Shown: positions 9,398-48,508, counted from the stretch's first letter. The stretch: 64,000 nucleotides of DNA from Candidatus Levyibacteriota bacterium (GCA_027459745.1 DAIDHL010000002.1:191310-255309); one strand, 5' to 3'. Translations and numbers: made by a program. Notes: a model not told the origin generated them from the letters alone.

Positions 9398-9463
9398 TAA
9401 TTAAATAAATAAACACGTAAAGTTTAATAGTGCAAACTTTGATAGAATAAGTAATGAATATTT

Positions 9464-10066
9464 ATGAAGACTTGTAAACATTGTGGAGAGGAACTAATTA
9501 TCAAACAAACTCAGACAAAGTCATCCCAATTGCAACAGCTGTATTACTACAAAGCATATTATTTTTGTTTAAATTGTCGACGTATTTATCATGATGACAA
9601 GTTTAAGGTTATAAATCACTCTCAAGCTATGTTTAATGACCAGAATAATTTATCTGTCTCCCCTGCTGATGTTGAAATTTGGACTGACGGTGCATGTACT
9701 GGTAATGGTACGTTAGATGCTAAGGCAGCCTGGGCTTTTGTTTCCGGGAATGAAGAGCAAGCTGGTTTAGTATTAGGTAAACAAACTAATAATCGAGCAG
9801 AAGCATATGCTATTTTATATGCGTTACAGTGGGCAGCAAAAAAAGGATATAGAAATATAATTATTTACACTGATAGTCAGATATCTATATTTGGTGTTAA
9901 TAAACATTTTTCTAAGGTAAAAGTAAACCAGGATATCTTCAAAGAAATCGCTGATGTGATTAATACAAGTAAATTATTAGTTACTTATAAAAAAGTTTTA
10001 GGACATAGCGGGGATGTAAATAACGAAAGAGTAGATAAATTAGCTAATAACTTAGCTTCTCATTAA
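9464..10066 (+). CDS. rnhA: Ribonuclease HI with N-terminal CxxC...CxxC zinc ribbon
   Basis: The catalytic DEDD residues are in context: EIWTDGAC, NNRAEAYA, IYTDSQ, ERVDKLA. An N-terminal segment CKHCG..(27 aa)..CLNCRR precedes the RNase H fold. Confidence 0.7.
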   Translation: MKTCKHCGEELIIKQTQTKSSQLQQLYYYKAYYFCLNCRRIYHDDKFKVINHSQAMFNDQNNLSVSPADVEIWTDGACTGNGTLDAKAAWAFVSGNEEQAGLVLGKQTNNRAEAYAILYALQWAAKKGYRNIIIYTDSQISIFGVNKHFSKVKVNQDIFKEIADVINTSKLLVTYKKVLGHSGDVNNERVDKLANNLASH

Positions 10067-18642: not shown

Positions 18643-18650
18643 AGTTATTC

Positions 18651-19190
18651 TTACTTAAGCATGTCTGCTAAACTAGATATAGCAGTAATGTTTCGAGTCA
18701 ACATGTGTGTTTTTCTTTGCGGATTCAACCAGAAAAATTTAGTGTTTTTATTTTGTTTGGCAACGTATTTTAATAAATGAAAGTCGTCATCAACATATCG
18801 ATCAATTTTCAGCTTTTTTAAAATATTATCTTTAAACAAGTGTGGTTGTTGGTTAGAAAAATTAAAATACATCTCGTCAAATATCTTATCGAAGCCGTGT
18901 TTTTTTGTTAGTTTGTGGGTGGTTTGTTCCAAAAAACTAAACCTACTAGAGATCAAGTAGAGCTTGTGTTCTTTCTTTGAAATTGATTCAAGAAATTCAA
19001 TATTTTTTTTGATTTTTGGTCTGAGAAATGGGAGATGAATAAGGCTACGCAGGATTTGTTCAGGTCTTGAAGGAATTCTATAGATTAGCACACCGTTGGC
19101 TTTTTTCTTATATAGATGATTGAGCACACTGTCTGGTATGAGTGGTGGATAGTCCACAAATACTTTGTCTAGATCGAAGCCTAAGTTCAT
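18651..19190 (-). CDS. HAD-like hydrolase (putative phosphatase)
   Basis: The N-terminal LGFDLDKVFV fits HAD motif I, hhhDxDx(T/V). The product is 179 aa. This is weak, motif-only evidence. Confidence 0.3.
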   Translation of the reverse strand: MNLGFDLDKVFVDYPPLIPDSVLNHLYKKKANGVLIYRIPSRPEQILRSLIHLPFLRPKIKKNIEFLESISKKEHKLYLISSRFSFLEQTTHKLTKKHGFDKIFDEMYFNFSNQQPHLFKDNILKKLKIDRYVDDDFHLLKYVAKQNKNTKFFWLNPQRKTHMLTRNITAISSLADMLK

Positions 19191-19249
19191 AATTTAATAT
19201 TAAGTATAAAGTATTCGACGTTATACAAACAAGCGATAAATGGCAGTTT

Positions 19250-20290
19250 TTATAATTTAGAAATCAGATCAAGAATCTTAAAGTTCCAGTTAACACGATG
19301 AGTATTGCCTTTACGATTTACTATTTCGTTTCTATGTTCTTTATACCAATTATAACTTTCTAAAAATAACTCTTTGTTGGACTTCTTGGGATGCCAATTA
19401 AGTAATTTTTCAGCTTTGGCTATAGAGACATAAGAATTTACGGGCATGGTTTTATAATGCCAGGCTGCAATTGGAGAAAGGTTTAAAATTTCTAAAATGC
19501 CAAGTATAAATTGGGATAGTAACACAGGAAGACCGGTAATTTTAGCTTTAGACCTACTTTGTTTGATAACATAACCTAGATCACTTTTCCATGATCCATA
19601 TTGTTTTGCACCAATATTAAATATCTGATTGTGTGTTTTGCTTATAAGAGCCTTATAAATCGCCTCTACCACATCTGTCACGGCTAATAATTGATATTTG
19701 TTGTCGCCATTACCAAGAATATATAATCGTCTATTATTATAAATTGCTTCAAACCAAAGAGCAAAAACTCCCAATCTTTCAATACCCAAGAAGGTTTTTG
19801 GTCGAATAATGTTTATCTCCAACCCTTTTTTCATATAATCTTTGCATAATCTTTCCCCTTCAATCTTAGAAATTCCATACCATCCGATAGGATCTAAAGG
19901 GCTTTCTTCTGTTTCTGGTAAATGCTTTGGTACCCCATAAACAGCTGTAGAAGAAATGAAGACAAGTCTTTTTATTTTGTTTTTCAATGCAGATTCAAGT
20001 GTGTTTTGTGTGCCGTCGATATTAACATGAAAAATTACATCTTTCTTGACTTGGATAGGAAGTGCAGCAGCTGTGTGAACTACATAACTATGATTTCTGA
20101 GGGATTTTAACAGTAGTTTCTTATTGCTGACGTCACCTTTAATAAATTTGACTTTTCCAACTAAATCTTTTGCATCAAGATCTGCGATGTCATATAAAGT
20201 AACATCCCAATGAGCTTTTAAAAATCTTCTAGCCAGATGTACTCCTAGAAAACCTGTACCACCTGTAATAAAAACTCTCTTTTTTTGCAT
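19250..20290 (-). CDS. NAD-dependent epimerase/dehydratase (extended SDR)
   Basis: The Rossmann motif VFITGGTGFLGVHLARRF is present. Catalytic YxxxK lies in context (YGISK). The product is 346 aa. Confidence 0.75.
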   Translation of the reverse strand: MQKKRVFITGGTGFLGVHLARRFLKAHWDVTLYDIADLDAKDLVGKVKFIKGDVSNKKLLLKSLRNHSYVVHTAAALPIQVKKDVIFHVNIDGTQNTLESALKNKIKRLVFISSTAVYGVPKHLPETEESPLDPIGWYGISKIEGERLCKDYMKKGLEINIIRPKTFLGIERLGVFALWFEAIYNNRRLYILGNGDNKYQLLAVTDVVEAIYKALISKTHNQIFNIGAKQYGSWKSDLGYVIKQSRSKAKITGLPVLLSQFILGILEILNLSPIAAWHYKTMPVNSYVSIAKAEKLLNWHPKKSNKELFLESYNWYKEHRNEIVNRKGNTHRVNWNFKILDLISKL

Positions 20291-20431
20291 AACTTTTGAA
20301 TTAAGACTTATAAAGAAGATATTGGGCAGAAAATATTTTCTATTTATTAATTATTCTATTGTACAATTTTACCTATTTCAAAAGCAAGAGTAATTGTATA
20401 AATAGATGCATTGAAGGTATAATAAATTTAA

Positions 20432-22030
20432 ATGATGAGTTTAGATTATAAAAAATATTACTTAAGAATAATTGAATTAATGCTGTTATTTACAATATTG
20501 ATTTTGGGTTTAGTAATTAGATGGCAAGGTATAGACACGGTTCCTTACTCCATTGAACAGGATGAATATCAGTGGTCTATAACAGCTTTTCTAAACTCCT
20601 ATAACATAAACTCAAGTGACAAAGGGGCATGGACAGTTAACTATGAGCTTTCTCAGTACTATCCTGTTACTTTTGTGTTTGATAGAATTTCTTTTTATAT
20701 CTTTGGACCAGATTTAGTCTCCCCTAGGAAGATGTTAATAGTTATTAGCACATTATCACTATTAGCATTCTACTTATTTATACGTAGACTATTTCCTGCA
20801 TGGACATCCTTAATAACTTTAACCTTATATAGTTTTTCTACCTACAAACTAATTACCAGTCGTATTGTGGAAGCATCCGCCTATATAGATCTTTTTACTT
20901 TTGTTGCAGCTTATATATTAATAGCAGTGCCGTTCGTTGAAGGATATGAGGGTTTTTCTTTGATGTTTCTAGGAGGCTTATCAGTAGTTTTGGCAATGCT
21001 TACTTATAATCAAGGATTTTTATTACCTTTGGTTTTCTTTATGATATTTGTATTTAAAGTATTTATTAATAGATGCTCAATAAAAGTAGTTAGATTCTAT
21101 TTTATTGCTTTCTTCTTGCCGATTATAGTAGCTCTTCCAAGATTGATATATATTGCCCATCAAGAAGCACTGTCACAAAACTATGCATTAACTTCTCTAG
21201 CGGTTTCATTAAATGGAATAGATCTGCATAAGTTATATGGAAATTTACAGACTGTATTTATAATACTATTCCTACATTCAAGTTATGACATGATAGTAAA
21301 TTATTCTGGGCCAATAGTAAATACTTTAGTTGTTGTTTTAGCATTGATCGGTATTGTGATAGGGTTATTACAGATTAAAAGATATTATCCAATACTATGT
21401 TTCTTCATTTTTATGTCCGTACCGTATCAGTTATTTTTTGGAATTAATGCTCCAAGGTGGTGGTATTTAAGCATAAGTGTAATTTACATCTTAGCAGGAG
21501 TAGTACTATTTAATCTCGAGAGAATATTAAAATGGTTATACATACGCAAAAAAAGAGGATTTCTATACGTATTAATAATTTTATTATTTATTACTATTAG
21601 TTATATTATTCAAGGAGAGGTTTGTAGATACTATTATCAAGCTTTATACAATCCATCCTTTAGGTCTACTGCGGATAGAGAAATGTTTGAAATAACTTAT
21701 AAATATAGAAGTGATTTAGGTAAAAATATTGCGTTCATTTTTTACAATGACGATTGGTATGAGCGAGATTTAATTACGAACCTAGCAGCATCATCATATA
21801 ATTATGTCTTAGCAAATTCAAATAACGCAAATAACATAAGAAATCAATCTAGATTAGCGTTAAACATAATGAATTTAGAAGAGTTTTATGACTATAAACA
21901 AATCTCAAAAATTAACAAGGTAGTAGTACCATATGTTTTATACCCTAAAATAAGAACTTACTTGCTAAGCAAAAAATATAAAATTAAAACTACGTATTTT
22001 GGGAAAAACTTTGACATAATTTTTGATTAA
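20432..22030 (+). CDS. GT-C fold membrane glycosyltransferase (PMT/ArnT-like, GT39/GT83-like)
   Basis: The 532-aa product is polytopic. A DE motif sits in the first extracytoplasmic loop (EQDEYQW). The overall architecture resembles its two neighbours. Confidence 0.4.
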   Translation: MMSLDYKKYYLRIIELMLLFTILILGLVIRWQGIDTVPYSIEQDEYQWSITAFLNSYNINSSDKGAWTVNYELSQYYPVTFVFDRISFYIFGPDLVSPRKMLIVISTLSLLAFYLFIRRLFPAWTSLITLTLYSFSTYKLITSRIVEASAYIDLFTFVAAYILIAVPFVEGYEGFSLMFLGGLSVVLAMLTYNQGFLLPLVFFMIFVFKVFINRCSIKVVRFYFIAFFLPIIVALPRLIYIAHQEALSQNYALTSLAVSLNGIDLHKLYGNLQTVFIILFLHSSYDMIVNYSGPIVNTLVVVLALIGIVIGLLQIKRYYPILCFFIFMSVPYQLFFGINAPRWWYLSISVIYILAGVVLFNLERILKWLYIRKKRGFLYVLIILLFITISYIIQGEVCRYYYQALYNPSFRSTADREMFEITYKYRSDLGKNIAFIFYNDDWYERDLITNLAASSYNYVLANSNNANNIRNQSRLALNIMNLEEFYDYKQISKINKVVVPYVLYPKIRTYLLSKKYKIKTTYFGKNFDIIFD

Positions 22031-22038
22031 AGACTGTA

Positions 22039-23862
22039 TTAAATTTTTTTAAAGATCATGATTTTGGGATGGTCATATACAGTAAATGATTCGTCTGCTG
22101 ATTGGTCATTAATTGGTATATTCATAAGAGGAATTTGCGGACTAATAGAAAACTGTTTAATTTTTTTAAAAATTAAATGTCTTGCACCGGGCAAATTGGC
22201 GAAAGAGGTACCTTGCAATATTGGTCTACCCGCGAACAAATTTTTGTAATACATACTTGCTATGGGATAGCAGCGTGGAAAAGGATATTTTTGGCAGTTT
22301 GCTAATTTTTGTATAGGTACATACAGACGATTTGAGGCAATGATTATATATTGAACTTGTTCTAGTTGATTTACTATTCCCTCCCATTTTTGTTGTGTAT
22401 CCGGATCATATAAAGGTAAAGTTTGCATTTCATAATTTGGAGCTGTACCTAAAGGTAATTCATCATCCCAATGCTCAACGGCAATACCCGTTCCTGAAGG
22501 TAGATTTTGATTAATATATTCTGTCGCCTGAACTCTAGTATTCGGTTGAGAATAAATATGTATGAAACTGAGTGGCCATATAAGAAGTAGAATGACAAAT
22601 GACGGATAGATCGCATATTTTAATAAGTTTTGGGATTTTGACTTATGGATTTGGAATATCGTTAGTGAATTAAGATAAATTATAAATTTATAAATCAGTA
22701 ATGCACCAAAAAGACAGAGTAAAGGATATAGAGGTAACATATAACGCATAAAGCCAATTGCAAACTTACCAACAATAAAAAAATATATCCAAAAGAAAAC
22801 GACTAATATAAATTCGTCTGCCCAAAGTGTTCTCTTATAAATATCCTTATCGGGTTTGTCTTTTAAAGTAGTAGTGCCAGAAAATATTTTACGAATTGAA
22901 TTTAGAGTGATATAAATCGATCCGCTGAACGTAATAATTGCAAGCAATGGCCCTAGTCCCCATAAGAATATATTTTCTATCTCATACCAGTATGGTATTA
23001 TTCCTACATATTGAAGGGTATAAGGAAACGTGAAAGCATTTGTGGTCATAGCGTCTTGTTGTAATGTCTGAGTCATAAATTCATTAAAATCAATAAATGC
23101 ATAAGGTTCTAAAACAAAATACGCTGCAGTCAGGGTAATTAAGATGAATAAACTATTACGTAATAATCCTACAATAAATCGTGGCAAATGATTTAACCAT
23201 TTCTTTGGATGAATGGAATGACTTAATAGCAATAATAAAAAATCTGCAGTTAATGCAATTACTACAGAAATACCTATAACTGTTGCACTAATTTTGGTCG
23301 CTAAGGCAAAAGCAATAGTTAAACCAATCAGAATAGCCTTACCAATGGAAGGTTTGTTATAAAACTTTATTAAAAGATAGAGAGTTATAGTCATAAAGCA
23401 AGTAAGTAGAGTATCTACGGCGTAAAAATGAGAAGTTTGAATAGCAAAAACGCTTATTGAATAGAAAAAAGCGGCAATTAGACCTGCCTTTTTATCTTTT
23501 AAATTCTTCCCCAATAAATAGACAAAAATAATAGTGCCTAAATCAAATGTGGCAGAGATTATTCTCCCCAATAAATTAATTCCATCATAAGTTGATAACG
23601 TGGGTTCTATATGAATAAACAACATACTCATTAACTTAAGTAAATATAAGGGAAAAGAACCGTAAGCAAAGAAATGAGGATTCCAAGGACTTTGTATTGA
23701 AAGGAATTGATTAAGATTACTGGGTAACTGGAGTTGTAAAGTATACAATACGATTGCTCTCTCATCAGGGTGTAAGTGATTGCCTTGATCCCAATCAATA
23801 TCATGCAAGCGAAAAATTGCTGCTAATATAATAATTAAAAATAGAATGATTTTAGATCTCAT
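22039..23862 (-). CDS. GT-C fold membrane glycosyltransferase (PMT/ArnT-like)
   Basis: HLHPDERAIV follows TM1 (the DE motif of GT39/GT83 loop 1). The product has 11 or more TM helices, and its C-terminal soluble domain is about 150 aa. Confidence 0.55.
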   Translation of the reverse strand: MRSKIILFLIIILAAIFRLHDIDWDQGNHLHPDERAIVLYTLQLQLPSNLNQFLSIQSPWNPHFFAYGSFPLYLLKLMSMLFIHIEPTLSTYDGINLLGRIISATFDLGTIIFVYLLGKNLKDKKAGLIAAFFYSISVFAIQTSHFYAVDTLLTCFMTITLYLLIKFYNKPSIGKAILIGLTIAFALATKISATVIGISVVIALTADFLLLLLSHSIHPKKWLNHLPRFIVGLLRNSLFILITLTAAYFVLEPYAFIDFNEFMTQTLQQDAMTTNAFTFPYTLQYVGIIPYWYEIENIFLWGLGPLLAIITFSGSIYITLNSIRKIFSGTTTLKDKPDKDIYKRTLWADEFILVVFFWIYFFIVGKFAIGFMRYMLPLYPLLCLFGALLIYKFIIYLNSLTIFQIHKSKSQNLLKYAIYPSFVILLLIWPLSFIHIYSQPNTRVQATEYINQNLPSGTGIAVEHWDDELPLGTAPNYEMQTLPLYDPDTQQKWEGIVNQLEQVQYIIIASNRLYVPIQKLANCQKYPFPRCYPIASMYYKNLFAGRPILQGTSFANLPGARHLIFKKIKQFSISPQIPLMNIPINDQSADESFTVYDHPKIMIFKKI

Positions 23863-29969: not shown

Positions 29970-30148
29970 ATGGTATTAATTTAGTCTAGGAAGTTTGGGT
30001 GAGTTTGTCAAAGCTCAAAGCGTGTTTAGAGAAATAAAAATCTTGCTAACAATAGGCGTCTGGGCTGTATAGCGTAGCTATTAGAAATATGATATACTAT
30101 TTATGTCAAAAGATAGATAAATCATAAATCTGACTTTTGGCGTTTTTT

Positions 30149-32257
30149 ATGGCAGATGACAAATCACGTATCTATCCTTTAGACAAAATTCGCAACATTG
30201 GCATTATTGCTCATATTGACGCGGGTAAAACTACCACTACTGAACGCATTCTTTTTTATACAGGAAAATCTTACAAAATTGGAGATATTGACGAAGGTAA
30301 TACCCAAATGGATTGGATGGAACAAGAAAAAGAACGTGGAATTACAATTGTGTCTGCTGCCACGACTACTTTTTGGAAAGGCAATCGTATTAATATCATT
30401 GATACTCCTGGTCACGTAGATTTTACGGCTGAAGTCGAACGCTCGTTGCGTGTGTTAGATGGGGGCATTACTGTTTTAGACGCAGAAGAAGGCGTACAAT
30501 CTCAATCTGAAACAGTGTGGCGTCAAGCGGATAAATATAAAGTTCCACGTATTTGTTTTGTAAATAAAATGGACAAGTTAGGAGCAGACTTTTTAGCTAC
30601 AGTTAAAAGCATAGAAGTACGTTTGGGTGCCAATCCAGCTATTATGGTTTTACCAATTGGTGCAGAAAGTACATATGTGGGTAATATTGATTTATTAACA
30701 CGTCAAGCAATTGTTTGGAATTCTGAAGATTTAGGAGCCAAGTTTGATGTTTCTGACAACATCCCAGAAGACATGAAAGCCCAAGTTGAAGAATATAGAG
30801 CGAAATTAATTGAAAAAATATCTGAAACTGATGATGCATTACTTGAGAAATATTTAGCCGGTGAAGAACCTTCCATTGAAGAATTAAAAATTGCTTTGCG
30901 TAAAGCGGTTATCGCTTATAAACTAGTGCCAATTTATGCTGGTACCAGCTTGCGTAATAAAGGGGTACAACCGTTGTTAGATGCTGTTATTGATTATCTT
31001 CCATCGCCTCAAGATTTGGACCATGTTACAGGTATTAATCCCAAGACTAACGAGCCAGAAACTCGCCAATTAGTTCCAGATGAATCATTAGCTGGCTTGG
31101 CTTTCAAAATTCAAAATGATCCACATGTCGGTAAATTGACTTATTTCCGTGTTTATTCGGGTAAAATTGTGGCTGGTTCTTATATCTACAACACTACTAA
31201 AAATGTCCGAGAGCGCGTTGGCCGTTTATTATTAATGCATGCTAATCAACGTGAAGAAATCAAAGAAGCTTATGCTGGAGAAATCGTCGGTATTGTGGGT
31301 CTTAAGGATACTATTACGGGAGACACCTTATGTGATGAAGAGCATCCAATCGTTTTAGAAAAAATTACCTTCCCAGAACCAGTTATTTCTTTGGCTATTG
31401 AGCCTAAAACTAAATCAGATCAAGAAAAACTTGGCTATGCCTTGAAACATTTAATGGATGAAGATCCAACCTTTAGAGTAAAAACTAACCATGAAACAGG
31501 TCAAACCATTATTTCCGGTATTGGTGAATTGCAGTTGGAAGTTATGGTTGATCGCATGAAGCGTGAATTTAATGTGTTGGCCAATGTTGGTGCCCCACAA
31601 GTAGCTTATAAAGAAACAGTCGAAAAAGAAGGTCAAGCTGAAGGCAAGTATATTCGCCAGTCAGGTGGACGTGGACAATATGGACATTGTTATCTGAGAG
31701 TGGAACCAAAACCTCGTGGTGAAGGTTATGAATTCGTCGATGCCATCAAAGGTGGAGCTATTCCTGCAGAATTCGTGACAGCTGTTGAAAAAGGTGTTAA
31801 AGAGTCTTTAGACACAGGTGTCTTGCTTGGCTATCCTTTAGTAGATTTGAAGGTAACCTGTTATGACGGATCTTTTCACGAAGTTGATTCGAATGAAATG
31901 GCCTTTAAGATCGCTGCATCGATGGCTTTGCGTGAAGCATGCAAAAAGGCCAACTTGATGTTGCTTGAGCCTATTATGAAAGTTGAAGTAACTACCCCCT
32001 CTGAATTTATGGGAGATATTATCGGTGACCTTTCTTCAAAAAGAGCACAAATCATGGGCACGGAAGAACACAACCGTGCAACTATTGTGAATGCGACTGT
32101 ACCATTGTCTGAATTATCAGGGTATGCTACTCAATTACGTAGTATGTCTCAGGGACGTGCATCTTATTACATGGAGCCAAGTCACTATGAACAGGTTCCC
32201 AACAATTTAGTTCAACAAATGTTGGCTAAATCCACTTTCACCGGTAGAGTAGAGTAA
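30149..32257 (+). CDS. fusA: Elongation factor G
   Basis: G1 [10 protein letters not shown]3 DTPGH and G4 NKMD are present, and domains II-V are full length. The product is about 700 aa. The ATG at 30149 is preferred over the track's TTG at 30137. Confidence 0.9.
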
Positions 32258-32294
32258 TTGACAAATACCCAACTTCAGCTATACACTTAAAACA

Positions 32295-32801
32295 ATGAGT
32301 ACATTGAATCCACCTACATATAGATATATCTTCTTCAAGAACATGATTTTATACGTTGTGATGGCTTGTATCATTTGGGGAATTTATATCTTAGCTTTTA
32401 GCACTAGTAGACAAGGAACCTCTACTAGTGACTTATTGCTTTCTGGGGGTATTTTTGGTGGTATAGGTTTAGCTATTATTTTGATTGGTTTGCTTTGGAG
32501 TTGGTTATATGTAGTTTTACTTGCTAAAAATTACTCTTATGACTTACAAGACAATGCTTTAATTATTCGTAAAGGCCTTCTATCTGTATCAACGATATCG
32601 ATACCATTTGCAAGAATTATTAATGCCACCTATAGCCAATCTATTTTTCAGCGCATATTTGCCGTTGGTACAATAAAAATCGATCAAGAGGATACATCAT
32701 ATTCTTGGAATGACATTGATATGCAAAGTTCAGATAAAATCATGAATGCAGTTTCGCATAAGAGCAATATTCAACCTATCTCCACCAATATTAAAAAGTA
32801 A
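32295..32801 (+). CDS. Bacterial PH-domain (bPH_2/YdbS-like) membrane protein
   Basis: Two N-terminal TM helices are followed by a YSYDLQDNALIIRKGLLSVSTISIPFARI pattern. Confidence 0.5.
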   Translation: MSTLNPPTYRYIFFKNMILYVVMACIIWGIYILAFSTSRQGTSTSDLLLSGGIFGGIGLAIILIGLLWSWLYVVLLAKNYSYDLQDNALIIRKGLLSVSTISIPFARIINATYSQSIFQRIFAVGTIKIDQEDTSYSWNDIDMQSSDKIMNAVSHKSNIQPISTNIKK

Positions 32802-32820
32802 ACTTCTCTTTAAAAATAAT

Positions 32821-33411
32821 TTATAGTCTTTTATATGCAGCTATTATTCTTTGTACAAAAGTGAAAGCAGAGAGAAGAATTAGCATAACAAATACTGCTT
32901 CAAGCAAATTTAAGTTTAAAACTTTAAAATTAGGCCAGAGTATATAAGCAATGAGTGAAAAAAAGATGATAGCCAAGCGTTCGGTTCTTTCTATTAATCC
33001 AACAGCAAACACTTGTTTGGCTCCGCTAGCTAGTTCTGCTCGTGATCGGGAATAACTGACTAGATAAGAAATGGCAATTAAGAATACACAAATTTGCCAG
33101 CTTACAATATTGGCAAAAGCAAAGCTCATAATCAGGAAAAAATCAGCGATTCTATCAAATGTTGAATCCATAAAGCCGCCAAAGGCAGTCTTTTTATTAA
33201 ATCTTTTGGCTACTGCACCATCCAAAGTATCAAAAGCGTTGCCCAGAAATGCCACTAAAGCCCAGCCATACTGATGATTTAAAATTAAAATAAAGAACAG
33301 AATTGATGGTACAATACCAATGAGAGTTAAGAGGTTGGGAGAAACTGAGGCAAGAGGAGAGACAAGTTTTTGGGTAGTTTTATCGATGGTTGGTTTAAAA
33401 ATTGATAACAT
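32821..33411 (-). CDS. CDP-alcohol phosphatidyltransferase (PgsA-like)
   Basis: The full family signature D-G-x2-A-R-x8-G-x3-D-x3-D is present: DTLDGAVAKRFNKKTAFGGFMDSTFDRIAD. The product is 196 aa and polytopic. Confidence 0.75.
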   Translation of the reverse strand: MLSIFKPTIDKTTQKLVSPLASVSPNLLTLIGIVPSILFFILILNHQYGWALVAFLGNAFDTLDGAVAKRFNKKTAFGGFMDSTFDRIADFFLIMSFAFANIVSWQICVFLIAISYLVSYSRSRAELASGAKQVFAVGLIERTERLAIIFFSLIAYILWPNFKVLNLNLLEAVFVMLILLSAFTFVQRIIAAYKRL

Positions 33412-33542
33412 AAAAATATTAGTTGTTTTAGCGACAAAGTAGATCTTGATGGGGTCCTTCGACTCCTTCGTAAACTCGGTCGCTCAGGATGACAAAAAGA
33501 ATTTAAAGATTATAATTCTTTCTGTCAATTGCTTATGCTTAT

Positions 33543-34232
33543 ATGAATACTATAAAGATAGATCTGCATACTCATTCTATTTTATCACCTGACGGTGGTT
33601 TAAGCGAGAATGACTATCAGAGCTTATTAAATAAAGGAATATTGGATTATATTGCCATAACTGATCACAATCGGATCGATTTCGCACAAAAAATGCACAC
33701 ACTTTTAGGTGATAAAATAATTGTCGGTGAAGAGATTAGCACAAGTGATGGGGAAATAATTGGTTTATTTTTAAATAAATCAATCGACAAAGGTTTAACT
33801 ACGTTTCAAACTATACAACAAATAAAAAAACAACAGGGATTAGTTTGTATACCACACCCATTTGAAACTATGCGTAAGGGTTTGCCGGAAAAAATCTTAA
33901 AGGAAATAATTAAAGAGGTGGATTTAATGGAAGTATTTAATGGACGTAGCTTGCAACCCGCGACGCGTAAATTGGCATTAGAGTTTATTGATAAATACAA
34001 TAAAGTCGGAGTTGCTAATAGTGATGCACATTGTAGAGTGGGAATTGGTAAAACATATAATTCAATTGATAAAAAACCGCTTAAACAAACGTTGGTAAGC
34101 TTATTAAAACAAGGAAACAGGCATGAAATAGCTTCTCCTTGGCTGGCTTATTTATGTCCCAAAGTTAATAGATTTAGAAATGTCATTCTGAACGTGTTTC
34201 AGAATCTTAATTTAAAAGAAATGCTGAAATGA
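33543..34232 (+). CDS. PHP-domain metal-dependent phosphoesterase
   Basis: The N-terminal IDLHTHS and IAITDHN histidine motifs are present. Later His/Asp residues follow (IPHPFE, NSDAH). The product is 229 aa. Confidence 0.65.
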   Translation: MNTIKIDLHTHSILSPDGGLSENDYQSLLNKGILDYIAITDHNRIDFAQKMHTLLGDKIIVGEEISTSDGEIIGLFLNKSIDKGLTTFQTIQQIKKQQGLVCIPHPFETMRKGLPEKILKEIIKEVDLMEVFNGRSLQPATRKLALEFIDKYNKVGVANSDAHCRVGIGKTYNSIDKKPLKQTLVSLLKQGNRHEIASPWLAYLCPKVNRFRNVILNVFQNLNLKEMLK

Positions 34233-34247
34233 ATTCAGTATGACAGT

Positions 34248-35168
34248 TTGGTTTATTTTATGAAAAAAGTTATTTACTTACTCAATCCAAAATCTAGTGA
34301 TGGGAGAGCGCTAGAATCTTGGCAAAAAGCCAGAGAAAAATTTCATGGGTTGCCAGAACATCCCCATTTAATTACAGAAATCGCAAATGTGCAAGACTTT
34401 ATCGAAAAAGAAAGACCAGACATTATTGCCATAGGTGGTGGAGATGGCACTATCAATAAGGTTTGTCAGGCTGTTTTATCCTCTAAAACCAAACCATGTT
34501 TATCTATTTTACCTCTAGGGACGGGTAACGCACTATCGTTCTGCCTGGGAGTAGAAACGTTGGAAAAGGCAATATTTGTGTTGGAAAAACAACCCAAATC
34601 TATAACCATCGATATTATGCATACTAATATTCCGGAATTTCCATTAGGAGTATTCAATATTAGTGTCGGATTTGATGCACGTATAGTATTTAATAGGGTA
34701 AATTATCGTTATATTGGTTTGAAATCATATATTTTTTCTGGCATCAGGAGTTTTTTTGGCCACCCAGAACGTGAAATTACATTTACTATTGATAAAAAAG
34801 TGACTTTAAAAGCTACGGCTAGTTCCTTGGTGGTAGCCAATTCACCGGTTTTAGGACAAAATCTTCTAATTTCTCCGCGGGCTAGGCTAAATGATGGTTT
34901 GTTAGATTGTACGTTATTTTCCACTAAATATGCCTATATGCAGAATCTGCGCTTGCGTGGTTTTAAGCATCCCTTTTATACGGAATTGGGTAAAGTGCAT
35001 TTCAAAGCGTCACATCTTTCTATTCAAGGTGAGCCCTATGTACAAATTGATGGAGATCCGGTGGTTAGGCAGGAAGGAATTGAAGTGTCGGTTCTGCCAA
35101 GTAAAATTACTTTTTTGCGTAACTTTGATGATCATATAGAGCAGAATTATAAGTCGTTTGTAGTATAG
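34248..35168 (+). CDS. Diacylglycerol/lipid kinase catalytic-domain protein (DgkB/YegS-like)
   Basis: The DAGK_cat signature IIAIGGGDGTINKV is present, and PLGTGNAL follows downstream. The product is 306 aa. Confidence 0.7.
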   Translation: MVYFMKKVIYLLNPKSSDGRALESWQKAREKFHGLPEHPHLITEIANVQDFIEKERPDIIAIGGGDGTINKVCQAVLSSKTKPCLSILPLGTGNALSFCLGVETLEKAIFVLEKQPKSITIDIMHTNIPEFPLGVFNISVGFDARIVFNRVNYRYIGLKSYIFSGIRSFFGHPEREITFTIDKKVTLKATASSLVVANSPVLGQNLLISPRARLNDGLLDCTLFSTKYAYMQNLRLRGFKHPFYTELGKVHFKASHLSIQGEPYVQIDGDPVVRQEGIEVSVLPSKITFLRNFDDHIEQNYKSFVV

Positions 35169-35259
35169 TTAGTAGGAAGGTCGAGTCATGACCTAAGTGG
35201 AAATTAGAAATTTTGTTCCGGCTCGCTTGAACTAGGTTAAGGATTATTAATACGAATCT

Positions 35260-35787
35260 ATGAATTATTTAATTTATGCTTTTTTGTTTTTTCTACCAGC
35301 TGGGATTGCCAATATGGCGCCGGTGTTAGTTAGTAAAATGCCGGGTTTGCGAGACTGGAATTACCCACTGGACAATTACACAAAGTTTAACGGTAAGCGA
35401 TTATTAGGTGATCATAAAACCTGGCGGGGATTATTGTCAGGAGTGATAGTGGGAATGTTAGTTGCCTGGGTGGAGGTAAGGATAATTGGGGGCATCGGGG
35501 TATTTAGGGAAGTAAATCCATTAGTTTTGGGAGGTTTGATGGGTTTGGGGGCATTGGTGGGAGATAGTGTCAAGAGTTTTTTCAAACGACAGCTGGGAAT
35601 TAAGTCGGGCCAAAGCTGGTTTCCTTTTGATCAAATAGATTATATAATAGGCGGAATTATATTTATTTTGCCGATTATTGTTTTATCCTGGCATATTTAT
35701 TTAACGATTTTTATTATCTATTTTTTACTGCATCTTCTGGTTTCTTTCCTTGGTTATCTTTTAAAGTTTAAATCGTCGCCTATCTAG
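35260..35787 (+). CDS. CarS-like CTP:lipid cytidylyltransferase (CDP-archaeol synthase family, DUF46) homolog
   Basis: The 175-aa polytopic protein has LPAGIANMAPVLV ... KRLLGDHKTWRGLLSGVIVG. I recall both segments as hallmark segments of the archaeal CarS family, but this comes from memory of that family, not from an alignment. Confidence 0.5.
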   Translation: MNYLIYAFLFFLPAGIANMAPVLVSKMPGLRDWNYPLDNYTKFNGKRLLGDHKTWRGLLSGVIVGMLVAWVEVRIIGGIGVFREVNPLVLGGLMGLGALVGDSVKSFFKRQLGIKSGQSWFPFDQIDYIIGGIIFILPIIVLSWHIYLTIFIIYFLLHLLVSFLGYLLKFKSSPI

Positions 35788-35811
35788 TCAATCAGTTATT
35801 GCTGCTATAAT

Positions 35812-36897
35812 GTGAGGATGAAACATTTTGCCGTTATATGGTTTTTGATTGTCATAGCGGCATTAATTGCTTGGCGCATGTTGAGTACACCTATAACCTC
35901 ACCCATACTTAGAGAGGTTACTGACACCCCTACTCCGGCTATACGTGTAGCAAAATATAATCAGTACACTATATTCGTTCCTTATTGGAGTATATCTAAC
36001 TCATCTTCTAAGATTGATCCAAAATATTCAGAGGTTGTTTATTTTGGACTTGCAGCTGATTCATCAGGAGTTGAGAAATCAGAAGATGGATACCTAAACA
36101 TCGCTGAATTTAACGCCATGGTTAATCCTAATCAGCAAAAAATATTAGCATTACGCATGCTAGATAGCAACGAAAATAGTAAAATACTAGCCAATACACT
36201 AGAACAGAAGCATCTTATTAGTCAAACTATTAGTATTGCAAAAGAAAATGGATTTAAAGGTGTGATGCTGGATTTAGAATTACAAGCTCTACCTTTTAGC
36301 TCGATAGTGAATCAAATAGATAAATTTTATGATATATTCTATCAGCAAACAAAACAGAATAATTTAAATTTTTCTACTACGATGTATGGAGATTTATTCT
36401 ATCGCCCAAGGCCGTTTGATTTAACATATCTGACGAAAGATGTTGATAAAGTGTACATTATGGCTTATGACCTACACAAGGCTAGTGGTCAGCCGGGTCC
36501 TAATTTCCCTTTACAAACAGTAAGTAATGATAGGAGTGATTATAATTTAGAAAAAATGATTAGCGATTATGAGCTAGTAGTACCTACAAACAAACTAGTG
36601 GTAGTTTTTGGTATGTTTGGTTACGACTGGACAGTAGACCCCAAAGGGCAGACTGTTGGAAGTGGAACCGCTTTGAGTGATTTACAAATTCAACAGCAGT
36701 TTTTGAGCCATTGTTATAAATTAAATTGTCTTATCTCTAGAGATAGTAATTCTCAAGAAACAGTAATTCATTTTACTGACAATAACCAAGATCATGTTCT
36801 ATGGTTTGAGGATAAAGTATCTTCTGATGCAAAGATGATTTATTTACATCAAAAAGGCATAGCTAATTTTGGGTACTGGGCCTTCTCTTATTTTTAG
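35812..36897 (+). CDS. Glycoside-hydrolase-family-18-like (chitinase-fold) secreted protein with degenerate catalytic motif
   Basis: There is an N-terminal signal/anchor. FKGVMLDLELQ aligns to the GH18 DGxDxDWE box, but only the terminal D-x-E is retained. MAYDLH resembles the GH18 MxYD motif. Confidence 0.4.
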   Translation: MRMKHFAVIWFLIVIAALIAWRMLSTPITSPILREVTDTPTPAIRVAKYNQYTIFVPYWSISNSSSKIDPKYSEVVYFGLAADSSGVEKSEDGYLNIAEFNAMVNPNQQKILALRMLDSNENSKILANTLEQKHLISQTISIAKENGFKGVMLDLELQALPFSSIVNQIDKFYDIFYQQTKQNNLNFSTTMYGDLFYRPRPFDLTYLTKDVDKVYIMAYDLHKASGQPGPNFPLQTVSNDRSDYNLEKMISDYELVVPTNKLVVVFGMFGYDWTVDPKGQTVGSGTALSDLQIQQQFLSHCYKLNCLISRDSNSQETVIHFTDNNQDHVLWFEDKVSSDAKMIYLHQKGIANFGYWAFSYF

Positions 36898-36958
36898 ACT
36901 ATTACTTAACTCTTATGTTTTTATGATTCATTTATGATTTTTTTATGATCTACTTATC

Positions 36959-37702
36959 TTGTATAGTCGTCGCATTTTTTTGCTATGTGCTATTCAGACT
37001 ATGCAAGCTGTTGATAGATATGATCAGTATAACATTTGGAGCAACTCATTGGCTTTAGAGGCAGAGAAAATACTGTTTTTACAACGTAAACATTGGTTTG
37101 TGCTCCTGCCGGTACTATTTTCAGTAAGTGTAACGATTATTCTAGGGTTTATTGCATTGGACTATTTAATTTTAGGTTTCTCAGTTGATTTCTTAACTTC
37201 TATCGTGCTGTTGTTATCTCTACTAACTCTATCTTCATCGATATTAATAAAAGCCCTAACAGAATGGTATTTTACGGTCTATATCCTAACTTCACGAAGG
37301 TTGTTAGAAATTTGCTATACTCCCTTAGCTTCTTACGTTCTAAACAATGTACTTTTGGAACAAGTACGGTGTACTGAAATAGATACGGCGACCAATGGAT
37401 GGCTCTATAAATATTTAAACATAGGGGATATCATTATTACATTTGATAGACCTACTCACAGAGATGCTTTTATTCTGCAATCTATTAAGAATTTCCATGT
37501 TCTGAGTCGTCAGTTATGTAGTCTTTTGCTACCAGTACAATCACCACAACAAAATTTATTAAAAGAGAGATCTAATTCTAATTTGCCCGCTAAAGTAATT
37601 TGGTTTAAACAAAAAGATCCTAAAAAAAAGCTTAATTCATTTGAAGAAATCCTGCCTAAGCGAAACATCTTTAATTACCCAGTCATTAAATATGGACTAT
37701 AG
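36959..37702 (+). CDS. Hypothetical membrane protein (possible bPH-like domain)
   Basis: The 247-aa product has 2-3 TM helices followed by a YILTSRRLLEICYTP region. The start is uncertain. Confidence 0.35.
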   Translation: MYSRRIFLLCAIQTMQAVDRYDQYNIWSNSLALEAEKILFLQRKHWFVLLPVLFSVSVTIILGFIALDYLILGFSVDFLTSIVLLLSLLTLSSSILIKALTEWYFTVYILTSRRLLEICYTPLASYVLNNVLLEQVRCTEIDTATNGWLYKYLNIGDIIITFDRPTHRDAFILQSIKNFHVLSRQLCSLLLPVQSPQQNLLKERSNSNLPAKVIWFKQKDPKKKLNSFEEILPKRNIFNYPVIKYGL

Positions 37703-37913
37703 ATATCTAGTAGGAGGGATCTGTCTGGTGTTAAATGTCGTTTTGTATGTTTATAATCGTTTTTATTTTCAAGAGGCGTTAAAAGCCAACCAACAAATTG
37801 GAATACCTTTACATTCGAGGTTAGAAAAGCTACTAAAAATAAATTCTGTGTTTATAAGTGCTGTTTTTATTTTTACCTTTACATATGTACTTTATCTATT
37901 AATTGTACGCTGA
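37692..37913 (+). CDS. Hypothetical small membrane protein
   Basis: The start was trimmed to the ATG at 37692 to avoid overlap with the upstream gene. The product has two hydrophobic helices. Confidence 0.25.
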   Translation: MDYRYLVGGICLVLNVVLYVYNRFYFQEALKANQQIGIPLHSRLEKLLKINSVFISAVFIFTFTYVLYLLIVR

Positions 37914-38018
37914 AAGTATATTTACCTATTGACGTAGAAAAAAAAATATCGTAGAATCTTTTCAGACTCATTAAAAAAGTGAGTTTTATTTTTGGGTAAT
38001 TTAATTATAAATTAACTA

Positions 38019-38047
38019 TTGAATTACTCAAGAATATTTAGTATAAT
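38019..38047 (+). promoter_or_regulatory. Putative tuf promoter (TTGAAT-N17-TATAAT)
   Basis: The -10 is perfect and the -35 is 5/6, with a 17-nt spacer. It ends 15 bp before the tuf start. Confidence 0.45.
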
Positions 38048-38061
38048 AATATTACAAATAT

Positions 38062-39243
38062 ATGGCAGATAAATATACTCGTTCAAAACCACATGTTAAT
38101 ATCGGTACTATTGGTCACGTCGATCATGGTAAGACTACAACTACAGCTGCTATTGCTACCTATCTTGCTAAAAAAGGTATGGCTCAAGCTAAGAAATATG
38201 AAGATATCGATAACGCTCCCGAAGAAAAAGCTCGTGGCGTCACGATTAATATTGCTCATATTGAATATGAGACAGAGAAAAGGCATTATGCTCACATTGA
38301 CGCTCCTGGTCATGCTGATTACATTAAGAACATGATTACAGGTGCAGCTCAAATGGACGGGGCAATTTTAGTTGTATCTGCTCCGGATGGTCCTATGCCA
38401 CAAACTCGTGAACATATCTTGTTAGCTTATCAAGTCGGCGTTCCAGCTATCGTGGTTTACCTTAACAAATGTGATATGGTTCAAGATGAAGAACTTTTGG
38501 ATTTGGTCGAAATGGAAGTACGTGAATTGCTTACTAAATATCATTATCCAGGAGACACTGTGCCAATTATTCGTGGCTCTTCTTTGAAAGCTTTGGAAGG
38601 CGATCCAGCTTATGAAGCTAAAATTCAAGAATTATTAGATGCAGTTGATTCTTATATTCCTACACCAGTTCGTGCTCTAGATAAACCATTCTTGATGCCA
38701 GTTGAAGATGTTTTCTCAATCAAGGGTCGTGGTACAGTGGTTACTGGAAGAATTGAGAGAGGTATTGTTAAAGTTAATGAAACAGTTGAAATTGTGGGTA
38801 TTCGTGATACTAAAAATACTGTTGTCACCGGAGTAGAAATGTTCCGCAAACAATTGGATGAAGGTCAAGCAGGAGATAATGTAGGTTTATTGCTTCGTGG
38901 TATTGAAAAAGCTGATGTAGAGAGAGGTCAGGTGGTTGCCAAACCTGGAAGTATTACTCCTCATACTGATTTTGAAGCTGAAGTTTATATTTTGACTAAA
39001 GAAGAAGGAGGACGTCATACTCCATTCTTCTCAGGTTACCGTCCACAGTTTTATATTAGAACTACTGACGTAACTGGAACAGCTACTTTACCAACTGGTG
39101 TAGAAATGGTTATGCCAGGTGATAATGCTAAAATGACTGTTCAATTGATTGTTCCAGTTGCTTTGGAAGAGGGAATGAGATTTGCTATTCGCGAAGGCGG
39201 TCACACCGTCGGAGCAGGAGTTATTTCCAAAATTATTAAATAA
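38062..39243 (+). CDS. tuf: Elongation factor Tu
   Basis: [14 protein letters not shown] and NKCD are present. The GTP domain is followed by complete domains 2 and 3. The product is 393 aa. Confidence 0.9.
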
Positions 39244-43989: not shown

Positions 43990-45306
43990 ATGGAAACTAA
44001 TGGACCAGTTCCAGCTGATATCTTAAACAAGAATAGTCTGTATTTAGAGTCTTTGCGTAAACAGGGCATTCAGATGACTGAATTAAGAGCGCAAGATAGT
44101 CCATTTAATGCCGTGGTGTTTAATAATGAGCAATTAGTTAATACTATTGGCCTCGAGTCTAAATCTTCAGAGATGGTAGTACAACAGCCCAAAAGTAACA
44201 TGCTAATGTTATACGCTGTACAGGGTGAAGCAGGTCTAGCTCAGATTGGTGGTTCATTTGCAATAGAACTAAAAAGCAAAGTAAATAATGTTGTTAATCT
44301 TAATGCACCTATCTCTCCCACTGCACTTGAATCAGCAGTCTATAATGCTGATTTGCAAAAGCAGGCTAGGCAAATGGCAGAATTATATATTCACGCTATT
44401 CCTGAGTCACAACGACACCAACCAATCAAGATTGTGGGACACTCGATGGGTGGTACATCTGCTCCCTTAGTCGCCAAGGAATTAATAAGTATGGGCTATA
44501 ACGTCAGTGATATCGTAATGATTGCTCCTCCTGGCATGGTAGAACGATCGGGAGTACAGATGTTAAACGATTTCACTAAATTGGGCAGTAAAGAAAATCT
44601 ACGTCCTGATGTACCCAATATTTATCCTAGTCCAGCTGATATTGCCAGTTTTAAGGAGCGTTATAAAGAGCTGTCAGAAAAAAAGAAACTTACCTCAGAA
44701 GAAAGAGAAGAAAAGGCTATGTACGAATTGGCTATCTCGCGCCAAGTTGATCCAGATAAATTAACTCTTAGCAATATGACACGTGCAGAACGTGATGCGG
44801 TAATTAAAATTGATGTAGAAATGTTATCTTTGCTAGAAGCCACAGATGATATTTCCCAAAAGCGCCTGAAAAAATTACAAGAACAAAGATTTAATATTCT
44901 AAAAAATAATACTTGGAAGGTTATTCCGGGAAAAGTTAATAATCAACCAAGTCAACGCAGTTTGGCGGGTGGGGAAAAATTGTACCTGACGGGTAATTTA
45001 GTGCGCAGTCTTGGCGGATTTAAACGTACAGTAACAGATTTGGCTAGTGAAATAACCGTGGGTAATACGCAGGATTTGATTGATTTCAATAATACGCTGC
45101 CTGATCATAAATTAAGAATTACCCTTATTGCTGGGAAAGATGATCCTATTGCTGGTCAGTATGAAGTTGGACACGTGAAGCACATAAAAGTTGGACCTAA
45201 TACTAGCTATGGAGAAATACAAATGCCGGAGTTTAGTCATTACTCTTTATCAGTTGATCCTGTTCGGGTCGCTCAAGCTGTAGGCAGAATAATTGAAGCT
45301 GCATAA
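43990..45306 (+). CDS. Alpha/beta-hydrolase-fold protein (GHSMGG nucleophile elbow; putative esterase/lipase)
   Basis: IKIVGHSMGGTSAPLVA is the serine-hydrolase nucleophile elbow. There is no signal peptide. The product is 438 aa. Confidence 0.5.
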   Translation: METNGPVPADILNKNSLYLESLRKQGIQMTELRAQDSPFNAVVFNNEQLVNTIGLESKSSEMVVQQPKSNMLMLYAVQGEAGLAQIGGSFAIELKSKVNNVVNLNAPISPTALESAVYNADLQKQARQMAELYIHAIPESQRHQPIKIVGHSMGGTSAPLVAKELISMGYNVSDIVMIAPPGMVERSGVQMLNDFTKLGSKENLRPDVPNIYPSPADIASFKERYKELSEKKKLTSEEREEKAMYELAISRQVDPDKLTLSNMTRAERDAVIKIDVEMLSLLEATDDISQKRLKKLQEQRFNILKNNTWKVIPGKVNNQPSQRSLAGGEKLYLTGNLVRSLGGFKRTVTDLASEITVGNTQDLIDFNNTLPDHKLRITLIAGKDDPIAGQYEVGHVKHIKVGPNTSYGEIQMPEFSHYSLSVDPVRVAQAVGRIIEAA

Positions 45307-47572: not shown

Positions 47573-48508
47573 TTATTTCACAAATTCAGCTAGTTCGGCG
47601 GTGATGGAGTCTTGCATATCTTTTTCTCTAGGAGCATGGCCGGCAAATACAAATTTGAGTTTCGAATTCTTAATTTTCTTATGTAGATTCCAGGCATTGG
47701 CGGGTGGACAAACAAAATCATAGCGTCCATGCAGAATAGTTACAGGAATATCTGAAAGTTTGTCAGCATTGTCGAGAATATAATTATCCGGCATAAAACA
47801 TAAATTCTTCATATAAGTAGCTTCAATGGGAGCAAAAGAACGATATGAACCGTCAGACATGCCTTCTTCAATTTCTTCCTCAGTTACCTGCATGGCCAGA
47901 AAAGCTGATTCATAATAATCAAATTCATAACAATATTTCTCTTTCTCCTCCTCTGTCCCATGTAGCATTTTACTCAAATAATATTCTAAAGCCTGGTCTT
48001 TTTTATCCTCTGGCACCAAATTCATAAACCTTTCCCAATTATCAGGGAAATTGTATTTAATAGGGCCATTAATCAGATGATCATTATCTGCACTGCTGCC
48101 CAAATAAATACCCCGGATTAACATACCTGTAATCCGTAGTGGGTTTTGCAGTGCATAAAACAGCGAAAGAGCAGAACCCCATGATCCTCCATAGAGAAAA
48201 ATTTTACCTAGATTAAAAAGCTTAAGAATCTGATCAATATCATCAAGCATTTTTTGTGTGGTGTTATTTTTTACACTGGCGAAGGGAGTACTTTTACCAG
48301 CTCCGCGCTGATCAAAAGTGATAATATTCCATTTGGTGAGGTCAAAAAAAACTAAATTAGAGTATTCTATGCCACCGCCACCGGGGCCGCCATGCAAAAA
48401 GAGGACTGGTTTGCCACTTGGATTGCCATGCTGCTCATACCAGAGTTTATATCCATCACTGACCTCCAAAAAACCTGATTTAAGGGGAGTATATGTTTTC
48501 TCCAGCAT
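47573..48508 (-). CDS. pip: Proline iminopeptidase (prolyl aminopeptidase, S33)
   Basis: The oxyanion loop VLFLHGGPGGG and the nucleophile GGSWGSALSL are present. The product is 311 aa and matches the family along its length. Confidence 0.8.
   Translation of the reverse strand: MLEKTYTPLKSGFLEVSDGYKLWYEQHGNPSGKPVLFLHGGPGGGGIEYSNLVFFDLTKWNIITFDQRGAGKSTPFASVKNNTTQKMLDDIDQILKLFNLGKIFLYGGSWGSALSLFYALQNPLRITGMLIRGIYLGSSADNDHLINGPIKYNFPDNWERFMNLVPEDKKDQALEYYLSKMLHGTEEEKEKYCYEFDYYESAFLAMQVTEEEIEEGMSDGSYRSFAPIEATYMKNLCFMPDNYILDNADKLSDIPVTILHGRYDFVCPPANAWNLHKKIKNSKLKFVFAGHAPREKDMQDSITAELAEFVK

Follow-up and report, generated by a model that had tools for sequence, protein, structure and literature searches.

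A conserved gene cluster pairing a CarS-like protein with a PHP phosphoesterase and a CDP-alcohol transferase in Patescibacteria: a candidate route to phosphatidylinositol

What does a predicted cytidylyltransferase of archaeal type do in the genome of a member of the Patescibacteria? The question is raised by four neighbouring genes at positions 32,821 to 35,787 of a 64,000-nucleotide stretch of DNA from a Candidatus Levyibacteriota bacterium (GCA_027459745.1, DAIDHL010000002.1:191310-255309), hereafter the window, which encode a cytidine diphosphate (CDP)-alcohol phosphatidyltransferase, a PHP-family phosphoesterase, a DAGK_cat lipid kinase and a small polytopic protein resembling CarS, the CDP-archaeol synthase of archaea (Table 1). 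An initial annotation, made from the sequence, had read these genes as a phospholipid-salvage module of a reduced genome, and all four of its family assignments were upheld by Pfam. We found that the transferase, the PHP protein and the CarS-like protein form a conserved core, and, on the evidence of sequence, the cluster most likely serves to make or re-make phosphatidylinositol (PI).

Relatives were collected by scanning one genome per GTDB species, which yielded at least 569 species with CarS-like genes; the best 80 loci were analysed, and all genes within 7 kb were also clustered, without preset families, across 85 non-redundant loci (numbered with the prefix L below). The neighbourhoods compared were loci of 20 kb or less, the window being 64 kb. 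In 64 of the 80 reference species the gene immediately preceding CarS encodes a PHP homolog (41-64% identical); a motif-bearing CDP-alcohol transferase lies within 5 kb of CarS in 64/80, and all three genes occur together in 59/80, mostly Saccharibacteria. Recurrence in so many species-level genomes puts this arrangement far outside what chance would give. The clustering ranked the same families highest (CarS in 83 loci, the transferase in 74 and PHP in 68), with lineage-specific synteny genes next. The saccharibacterial clusters run transferase, PHP, CarS, all in one direction, and the stop codon of one gene often overlaps the start codon of the next; the transferase is divergent in the window's lineage and in other Microgenomates-like genomes. 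The nearest reference genome is a Candidatus Levyibacteriota metagenome-assembled genome (MAG) with the same synteny and a CarS protein 69% identical to that of the window. The conserved core is transferase, PHP and CarS. The expectation of a conserved functional cluster was borne out by these counts, and of the membership first proposed the core of three genes held, while the kinase (8/85 loci) and the flanking bPH and GH18-like genes did not belong to it.

Two further genes recur near the cluster elsewhere. A PIG-L/LmbE deacetylase (PF02585, E ~4e-30, AHPDDE motif) follows CarS directly and in convergent orientation in 31 loci, about 30 of them from Saccharibacteria (e.g. L004 6509-7039, minus strand), and one is near CarS in L089 (11332-12000, plus strand); no PIG-L gene was found in the window. 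The classical substrates of PIG-L enzymes are N-acetylglucosamine-inositol conjugates, a circumstantial pointer to inositol lipids. A DUF1361 integral membrane protein is divergent from the transferase in 43 loci, e.g. L003 5980-6603, L004 3891-4652 and L006 3921-4619 (all minus strand), and could belong to the saccharibacterial module or be merely syntenic. Patescibacteria-type CarS clusters also appeared in MAGs labelled Gammaproteobacteria or Burkholderiaceae (L016, L026, L058, L064, L073 and L087), which are probably mislabelled or contaminated bins.

The 175-residue protein is of CarS type and not of CdsA type, as had been proposed; Pfam, comparison of the sequence with A. pernix CarS and the predicted fold agree on this. 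PF01864 matched at E=3.5e-26 (92.7 bits, gathering cutoff 22) and essentially at full length (residues 2-172 on profile positions 3-172 of 175), whereas CTP_transf_1, the CdsA model (PF01148), matched only in part (E=6e-6; residues 52-115 on profile positions 169-231 of 264). The segments quoted in the initial annotation, LPAGIANMAPVLV, RLLGDHKTWRG and, in the kinase, GGDGT, were all found in the translations of the open reading frames (ORFs). A. pernix CarS (5guf) was the sole meaningful sequence match in the PDB (E=3e-15), and it was also the only Foldseek match at E<1e-3 to an AlphaFold2 model of the protein (pLDDT 92.8; TM 0.74/0.82, root-mean-square deviation 1.9 Å), which reproduces the five-helix intramembrane fold of A. 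pernix CarS; TmCdsA was not among the fold-search matches. A residue comparison made through HMMER alignment found the cytoplasmic-loop motifs LPAxIAN, RLLGDxKT, GDxxxSFxKR and DQxD in both proteins, and GDxxxSFFKR and FDQxDY are invariant in 19 bacterial CarS-like homologs.

Although family and predicted fold are common to the window protein and archaeal CarS (A. pernix 5GUF; A. fulgidus AF1740), the bacterial protein stands apart in its clade, in a score below the NCBIfam CarS equivalog cutoff (NF003114; 135.7 bits, cutoff 148) and in its presumed substrate, an acyl-phosphatidate. In a distance tree built from 20 bacterial sequences and 18 named archaeal ones, bacteria and archaea were split in 100/100 bootstraps, with a single bacterial clade that takes in the proteins of Chloroflexia and WS6; identity between the window protein and the archaeal sequences is 27-36%. 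Judged by its sequence it is a member of a distinct bacterial CarS-like subfamily, and the separateness of the clade implies no recent transfer from any sampled archaeon. Its gene is clustered with PHP, CDP-alcohol transferase and DagK genes, unlike CarS in the two archaeal contexts examined (Methanobacteriaceae and Micrarchaeota), where neither a PHP nor a CDP-alcohol transferase gene was nearby, a small sample on which to judge an archaeal origin of the cluster. With bacterial CdsA the protein has in common the catalytic core and the proposed reaction, in which cytidine triphosphate (CTP) and phosphatidate (PA) would give CDP-diacylglycerol (CDP-DAG) and pyrophosphate, but subfamily and architecture differ, 175 residues standing against a 264-position CdsA profile. 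The CarS-like neighbourhoods in Chloroflexia (L080) and WS6 (L029) offered nothing informative. In the latter, a 310-residue ORF with no Pfam match (9070-10002) overlaps the start of the CarS-like gene and sits where DagK sits elsewhere; the search for DagK homologs did not pick it up.

The reaction of a CDP-alcohol transferase requires a lipid activated as its CDP derivative, and such a transferase adjoins CarS in 74/85 loci, which argues that the CarS-like protein and the transferase work together in attaching a head group by way of a CDP-lipid, a conclusion we hold with higher confidence than the complete pathway set out below. The window transferase matched PF01066 (CDP-OH_P_transf) at E=1e-15. 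It had been called PgsA-like, an identity we rejected because models for archaetidylinositol-phosphate synthase (AIPS) and phosphatidylinositol-phosphate synthase (PIPS) outscore pgsA: in the NCBIfam ranking AIPS came first (NF040950; 145 bits, cutoff 180) and PIPS second (NF045883; 87.7 bits, cutoff 170), with pgsA at just 31.6 bits. Both the AIPS and the PIPS equivalog cutoffs were missed. Among five cluster transferases of Saccharibacteria and Microgenomates type, AIPS and PIPS were again the two highest-scoring models, AIPS leading in four and PIPS in one, and no pgsA score exceeded 42 bits. The best PDB match was M. tuberculosis PgsA1/PIPS (6h53, E=1.8e-10), and the nearest solved relatives are the mycobacterial and Renibacterium PIPS. 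In MtPgsA1, the inositol-phosphate pocket is formed by R94, S132, K135, R137, R152, R155 and R195, of which R94 is typical of enzymes that use inositol phosphate (Grave et al., 2019). HMMER alignments place these residues on the Arg after the fourth Asp of the window protein and on S119, R122, R124, R142, R145 and R188, so that by alignment all seven positions are conserved. Since every score falls below its equivalog cutoff, we say only that the enzyme probably works like PIPS/AIPS, with inositol phosphate as acceptor; membership of either family is not proven. An acceptor of this type makes a subsequent phosphatase step obligatory.

A second type of CDP-alcohol transferase occurs beside or near CarS in L015, L023, L056, L060, L069, L070, L081 and L085. 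Arg is missing from its motif, DxxDGxxA[H/E/Q/A/D]xTGTKSPLGE...D...DK, both after the AR position and after the fourth Asp. It is found mostly in CarS loci that have no PHP gene, and it may attach a different head group.

The phosphatase step is where the PHP protein may come in. Pfam placed PHP_C above its gathering score (E=5e-7) and PHP below it (E=4.5e-4), and there was no significant PDB sequence match. The protein represents a family of about 217 residues, largely from Patescibacteria (1669 matches). Its predicted metal ligands (H9, H11, D17, H42, E64, H105, D161 and H163) show no variation across 25 homologs, and an AlphaFold2 model (pLDDT 95.2) found as fold neighbours RNase AM (top), TM0559, BVU_3505 and the pAp phosphatase Cv1693, the best at E=7e-11. 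The fold and the complete ligand set are common to these TrpH-like enzymes and the window family, but the latter is distinct, has a conserved cationic amphipathic C-terminal helix, and is linked to lipid rather than nucleotide genes. Because it has neither a signal peptide nor a transmembrane segment, the protein is expected to act in the cytoplasm, which is also the side of the active sites of CarS-type enzymes and CDP-alcohol transferases. Intact ligands, this location, the cationic tail and its standing as the tightest-linked soluble partner (64/80 species) all fit a phosphatase role, and gene linkage and pathway logic together make it the obvious candidate for a phosphatidylinositol phosphate (PIP) phosphatase. 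Cv1693 takes off a ring-bound 3'-phosphate beside a second phosphate, a geometry that may resemble that of PIP. Neither Pfam nor NCBIfam matched the protein to the known phosphatases of PIP and phosphatidylglycerol phosphate (PGP), namely PgpA, PgpB and PgpC, and the literature searched contains no PHP-type PIP phosphatase. Papers on mycobacteria and archaea describe the phosphatase acting after PIPS or AIPS as not yet identified, and in Bacteroides the PIP phosphatase, BT_1525, is of the PgpA family.

The kinase carries GGDGT and matched DAGK_cat (E=5e-17, 62.2 bits) and YegS_C (E=1e-11, 45.3 bits), both above their cutoffs; TIGR00147 gave 79.4 bits, short of its cutoff of 118.65, and every equivalog model fell far under its own. 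Its PDB matches were YegS (2jgr, E=4e-12) and BmrU/DgkB-like structures (about 4e-10). Domain architecture, GGDGT and predicted solubility are common to the YegS, BmrU and DgkB kinases and the window protein, which differs from them in being divergent and embedded in a CDP-lipid operon. It probably starts at the ATG at 34260, giving 302 residues and a gap of 27 bp after the PHP gene, because the protein collection lacks the 306-residue form starting at TTG and the homologs are 302-303 residues long. Among the 85 loci, DagK lies between PHP and CarS in 8 besides the window (L009, L016, L019, L025, L058, L087, L089 and L090). Unlike the window, six of these (L016, L019, L025, L058, L087 and L090) have no gene for elongation factor EF-G or EF-Tu within 10 kb, and L030, which has the cluster between fusA and tuf as in the window, has no DagK. 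From its presence in 8/85 loci and its absence from the syntenic L030, we take DagK to be a recurrent lineage-specific insertion. Its position between PHP and CarS would fit a supply of PA from diacylglycerol (DAG).

Taken together, these predictions outline a route that would run entirely on the cytoplasmic face of the membrane. The soluble DagK-type kinase would phosphorylate DAG, scavenged or left by head-group donation elsewhere, to PA; the CarS-like membrane enzyme would convert PA and CTP to CDP-DAG, doing the job of CdsA on an archaeal-type scaffold; the AIPS/PIPS-like transferase would exchange cytidine monophosphate for myo-inositol-1-phosphate, giving PIP; and the PHP metallo-phosphoesterase would strip that phosphate to leave PI. 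The initial annotation had suggested a sequence from DAG through PA and a CDP-activated lipid to head-group transfer and dephosphorylation, and this reaction order is the most coherent reading of the cluster. That the genes encode the whole chain from DAG through PA, CDP-DAG and PIP to PI is a proposition we believe and doubt in about equal measure; what each enzyme acts on, which way the flux runs and the setting of salvage are all inferred.

Several observations weigh against the proposed chain. Every equivalog score of the cluster proteins is under its curated cutoff. Characterised archaeal CarS enzymes favour geranylgeranyl lipids over PA and did not complement E. coli cdsA, the literature searched offers no biochemical data on any bacterial CarS-like protein, and CarS-like genes are also solitary in Chloroflexia, Ktedonobacteraceae and WS6. 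The enzymes closest in structure to the PHP protein have nucleotides, not lipids, as substrates. The transferase signature, which had been described as complete, retains the four Asp and both Gly of the CDP-alcohol phosphatidyltransferase pattern DxxDGxxAR...GxxxDxxxD, but it reads DTLDGAVAKRFNKKTAFGGFMDSTFDR, with Lys where DGxxAR canonically has Arg, as in the closest relatives; Arg occupies this position in 66/78 cluster transferases. No inositol-1-phosphate synthase (MIPS) gene was found in the window or in the annotated neighbourhoods. Finally, annotation and transposon-sequencing tables for Southlakia epibionticum contain no PF01864, PHP_C, PIG-L or DAGK_cat protein and list a single, non-essential CDP-alcohol transferase. 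The absence of the module from this cultivated Saccharibacterium led us to reject the broader claim of a general salvage pathway for the membranes of reduced genomes; the module is accessory and would serve a special lipid, and is neither a universal route of lipid acquisition nor a means of general membrane building in Patescibacteria.

The main rival for the function of the PHP protein is an upstream phosphodiesterase role, in which the enzyme would act first, stripping head groups from imported host phospholipids in the manner of a phospholipase C or D; the CarS-like protein and the transferase would then rebuild a lipid from the resulting DAG (by way of DagK) or PA, and the final phosphate would be removed by another enzyme or kept. 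Such a scheme would account for the recruitment of a DAG kinase to the operon, the gene order PHP, DagK, CarS parallels its reaction order, and the PHP family does include phosphodiesterases, among them RNase AM, the top structural neighbour. DagK is missing, however, from 60 of the 68 PHP-bearing loci, a protein with no signal peptide or transmembrane segment is not placed to attack host membranes from outside, and a PIPS-type product would still need a phosphatase, for which the cluster has no other linked candidate; we consider this scheme unlikely. The head group itself is the subject of another alternative, that the transferase makes PGP or a different phosphorylated polyol lipid, with the PHP protein serving as a non-orthologous PGP phosphatase, and that the product is phosphatidylglycerol (PG) and not PI. 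The chemistry would be the same, a CDP-lipid and a phosphorylated alcohol followed by a phosphatase, PG is a universal bacterial lipid, PGP synthase is among the steps listed by Starr et al. (2018), and the failure of every score to reach its equivalog cutoff would be compatible with it. Against this, pgsA models gave 22-42 bits to cluster transferases that scored 80-150 bits with AIPS/PIPS models, the seven pocket residues, R94 included, are conserved, and the PIG-L neighbour points to inositol glycoconjugates, which together make a PG product improbable.

Both membrane enzymes score highest on archaeal models (CarS 135.7 bits, AIPS 145 bits), and with the known preference of characterised CarS for geranylgeranyl over acyl chains this raises the question of an isoprenoid substrate: the CarS-like protein might activate an ether or isoprenoid lipid phosphate, such as archaetidic-acid-like lipids from archaeal partners, and the transferase form an archaetidylinositol-type lipid. 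The bacterial proteins nevertheless form a separate clade at low identity to archaeal CarS, no GGGPS, DGGGPS, G1PDH or prenyl synthase was found among the conserved neighbours in the 85 loci, and the kinase recruited is of the DAGK_cat family. Cultivated Saccharibacteria, moreover, live on Actinobacteria, and the lipids attributed to the candidate phyla radiation (CPR) in Crystal Geyser groundwater are lysolipids in a fatty-acid-based lipidome, and we regard an archaeal-type substrate as quite improbable. The CTP_transf_1 superfamily includes CTP-dependent polyprenol kinases. It is conceivable on this ground that the CarS-like protein is a CTP-dependent lipid kinase, comparable to dolichol and phytol kinases, and only indirectly linked to the transferase, and the solitary CarS-like genes of Chloroflexia, WS6 and Ktedonobacteraceae could be read in the same way; but the full-length match to CarS in both sequence and fold, and the tight, often translational coupling to a transferase that needs a CDP-lipid donor, make this very improbable.

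The route to PI thus preferred would be known chemistry carried out by an unusual enzyme set. Mycobacterial PgsA1/PIPS likewise joins CDP-DAG and inositol phosphate to PIP, from which PI is formed, and the window transferase keeps its inositol-phosphate pocket; synthase and phosphatase genes are clustered both here and in Bacteroides (BT_1523, PIPS; BT_1525, PIP phosphatase). The window cluster differs from the mycobacterial and Bacteroides routes in having a PHP-fold and not a PgpA-type candidate phosphatase, a CarS-type candidate CDP-DAG synthase, a transferase nearer to archaeal AIPS than to bacterial PIPS models, and no MIPS gene. In the eukaryotic PI cycle, DGK, CDS and PIS act in turn to regenerate PI. 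The logic of DAG kinase, CDP-DAG synthase and inositol transfer is alike, whereas the enzymes are unrelated or distantly related, a PIPS and a phosphatase stand in place of a PI synthase using free inositol, and no signalling phospholipase C was identified. From annotation, Starr et al. (2018) described steps from PA through CDP-DAG to PGP, cardiolipin and PI, and to PI-mannosides, in a Saccharibacterium; the salvage concept is consequently not new, and theirs is a prior prediction that independently supports a PI route. The literature searched contains no description of the CarS-type identity, the conserved PHP partner or the operon, nor any paper on bacterial or CPR homologs of CarS, which goes unmentioned in Coleman 2019.

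The coordinates of the cluster and its divergent intergenic region are collected in Table 1.

Table 1. Features of the lipid cluster and of its GH18-like flank, in window coordinates.
Feature	Position	Strand	Remarks
CDP-alcohol phosphatidyltransferase, AIPS/PIPS-like, polytopic	32821-33411	-	196 aa; Pfam, NCBIfam and PDB match
Divergent intergenic region, 131 bp, candidate promoters for both transcription units	33412-33542	.	sigma-70-like matches
PHP-family metal phosphoesterase, soluble, cytoplasmic; candidate PIP phosphatase	33543-34232	+	229 aa
YegS/BmrU/DgkB-type soluble lipid kinase; candidate DAG kinase supplying PA	34248-35168	+	306 aa
CarS-family integral-membrane CTP:lipid-phosphate cytidylyltransferase; candidate CDP-DAG synthase	35260-35787	+	175 aa
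GH18-like protein, N-terminal membrane anchor	35812-36897		GH18 E=1.4e-17

The four ORFs, their strands and, for the ORFs as annotated, the gaps of 15 bp between PHP and kinase and 91 bp between kinase and CarS-like gene are as first described, and the coordinates confirm that the transferase gene lies immediately upstream of the other three and is divergent from them. The best sigma-70-like match between 32000 and 38100 is in the divergent region (plus strand, 33489-33516, 11/12 positions), which also holds one on the minus strand (33528-33500, 10/12 positions). Promoter and terminator counts in 32000-38100 did not exceed those of shuffled sequence, so that individual promoter matches are suggestive only and the operon boundaries rest on spacing and conservation.

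The cluster and its flanks (the bPH and GH18-like genes and two ORFs of no recognised family) lie between fusA (EF-G, 30137-32257) and tuf (EF-Tu, 38062-39243), which normally adjoin in the str operon. The same insertion between fusA and tuf is present in L009, L030 and L089 and in none of the other DagK-type loci. It had been noted that the cluster was flanked by bPH membrane proteins. Upstream this is correct, since 32295-32801 encodes a bPH_2 protein by Pfam, but the downstream 247-residue ORF (36959-37702) has no family match and is unrelated to bPH_2; it has two hydrophobic segments and is conserved in L009, and a further ORF of no recognised family (37641-37913) overlaps it. The degenerate GH18-like flank was also recognised correctly: its motif reads KGVMLDLE, with DxE kept and the first two Asp lost. 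As bPH occurs in no other locus and the GH18-like gene only in L009, L030 and L089, both flanks were rejected as members of the system.

Elsewhere in the window no cdsA, pls or fab gene was found. Two alpha/beta-hydrolases (43990-45306 and 47573-48508), the former with weak matches to Thioesterase, Lipase_3, PGAP1 and a Tle3-type phospholipase, are possible lipases or lysophospholipases relevant to scavenging. A run of envelope-glycosylation genes (16342-23862) encodes a DUF2298 membrane protein, an NAD-dependent epimerase and two GT-C PMT_2 glycosyltransferases, with LytR_cpsA_psr (15149-16312) and FemAB (11278-12306) genes nearby.

The cluster is a widely conserved handle on the use of acquired lipid backbones in Patescibacteria. 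A CarS-type enzyme that in bacteria presumably acts on ester lipids would make the "lipid divide" less sharp where enzymes are concerned, and the PHP protein can be put forward for a step, the dephosphorylation of PIP or archaetidylinositol phosphate, that lacks an assigned enzyme in mycobacteria and archaea. At its boldest, the interpretation would make the bacterial CarS-like proteins a second family of bacterial CDP-DAG synthases, independent of CdsA, and the PHP protein the first PIP phosphatase with a PHP fold; with the AIPS-like synthase, and in some lineages a DAG kinase, they would constitute a self-contained prokaryotic PI cycle that turns scavenged host backbones into inositol lipids in many environmental Patescibacteria, possibly as glucosamine-PI-type anchors given the linked PIG-L. 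We offer this larger picture tentatively and with rather more doubt than belief. Inositol lipids are regarded as rare in bacteria, and if the proposal is true their range would be widened, most strikingly in Saccharibacteria, the cultivated members of which live on PI-rich Actinobacteria.

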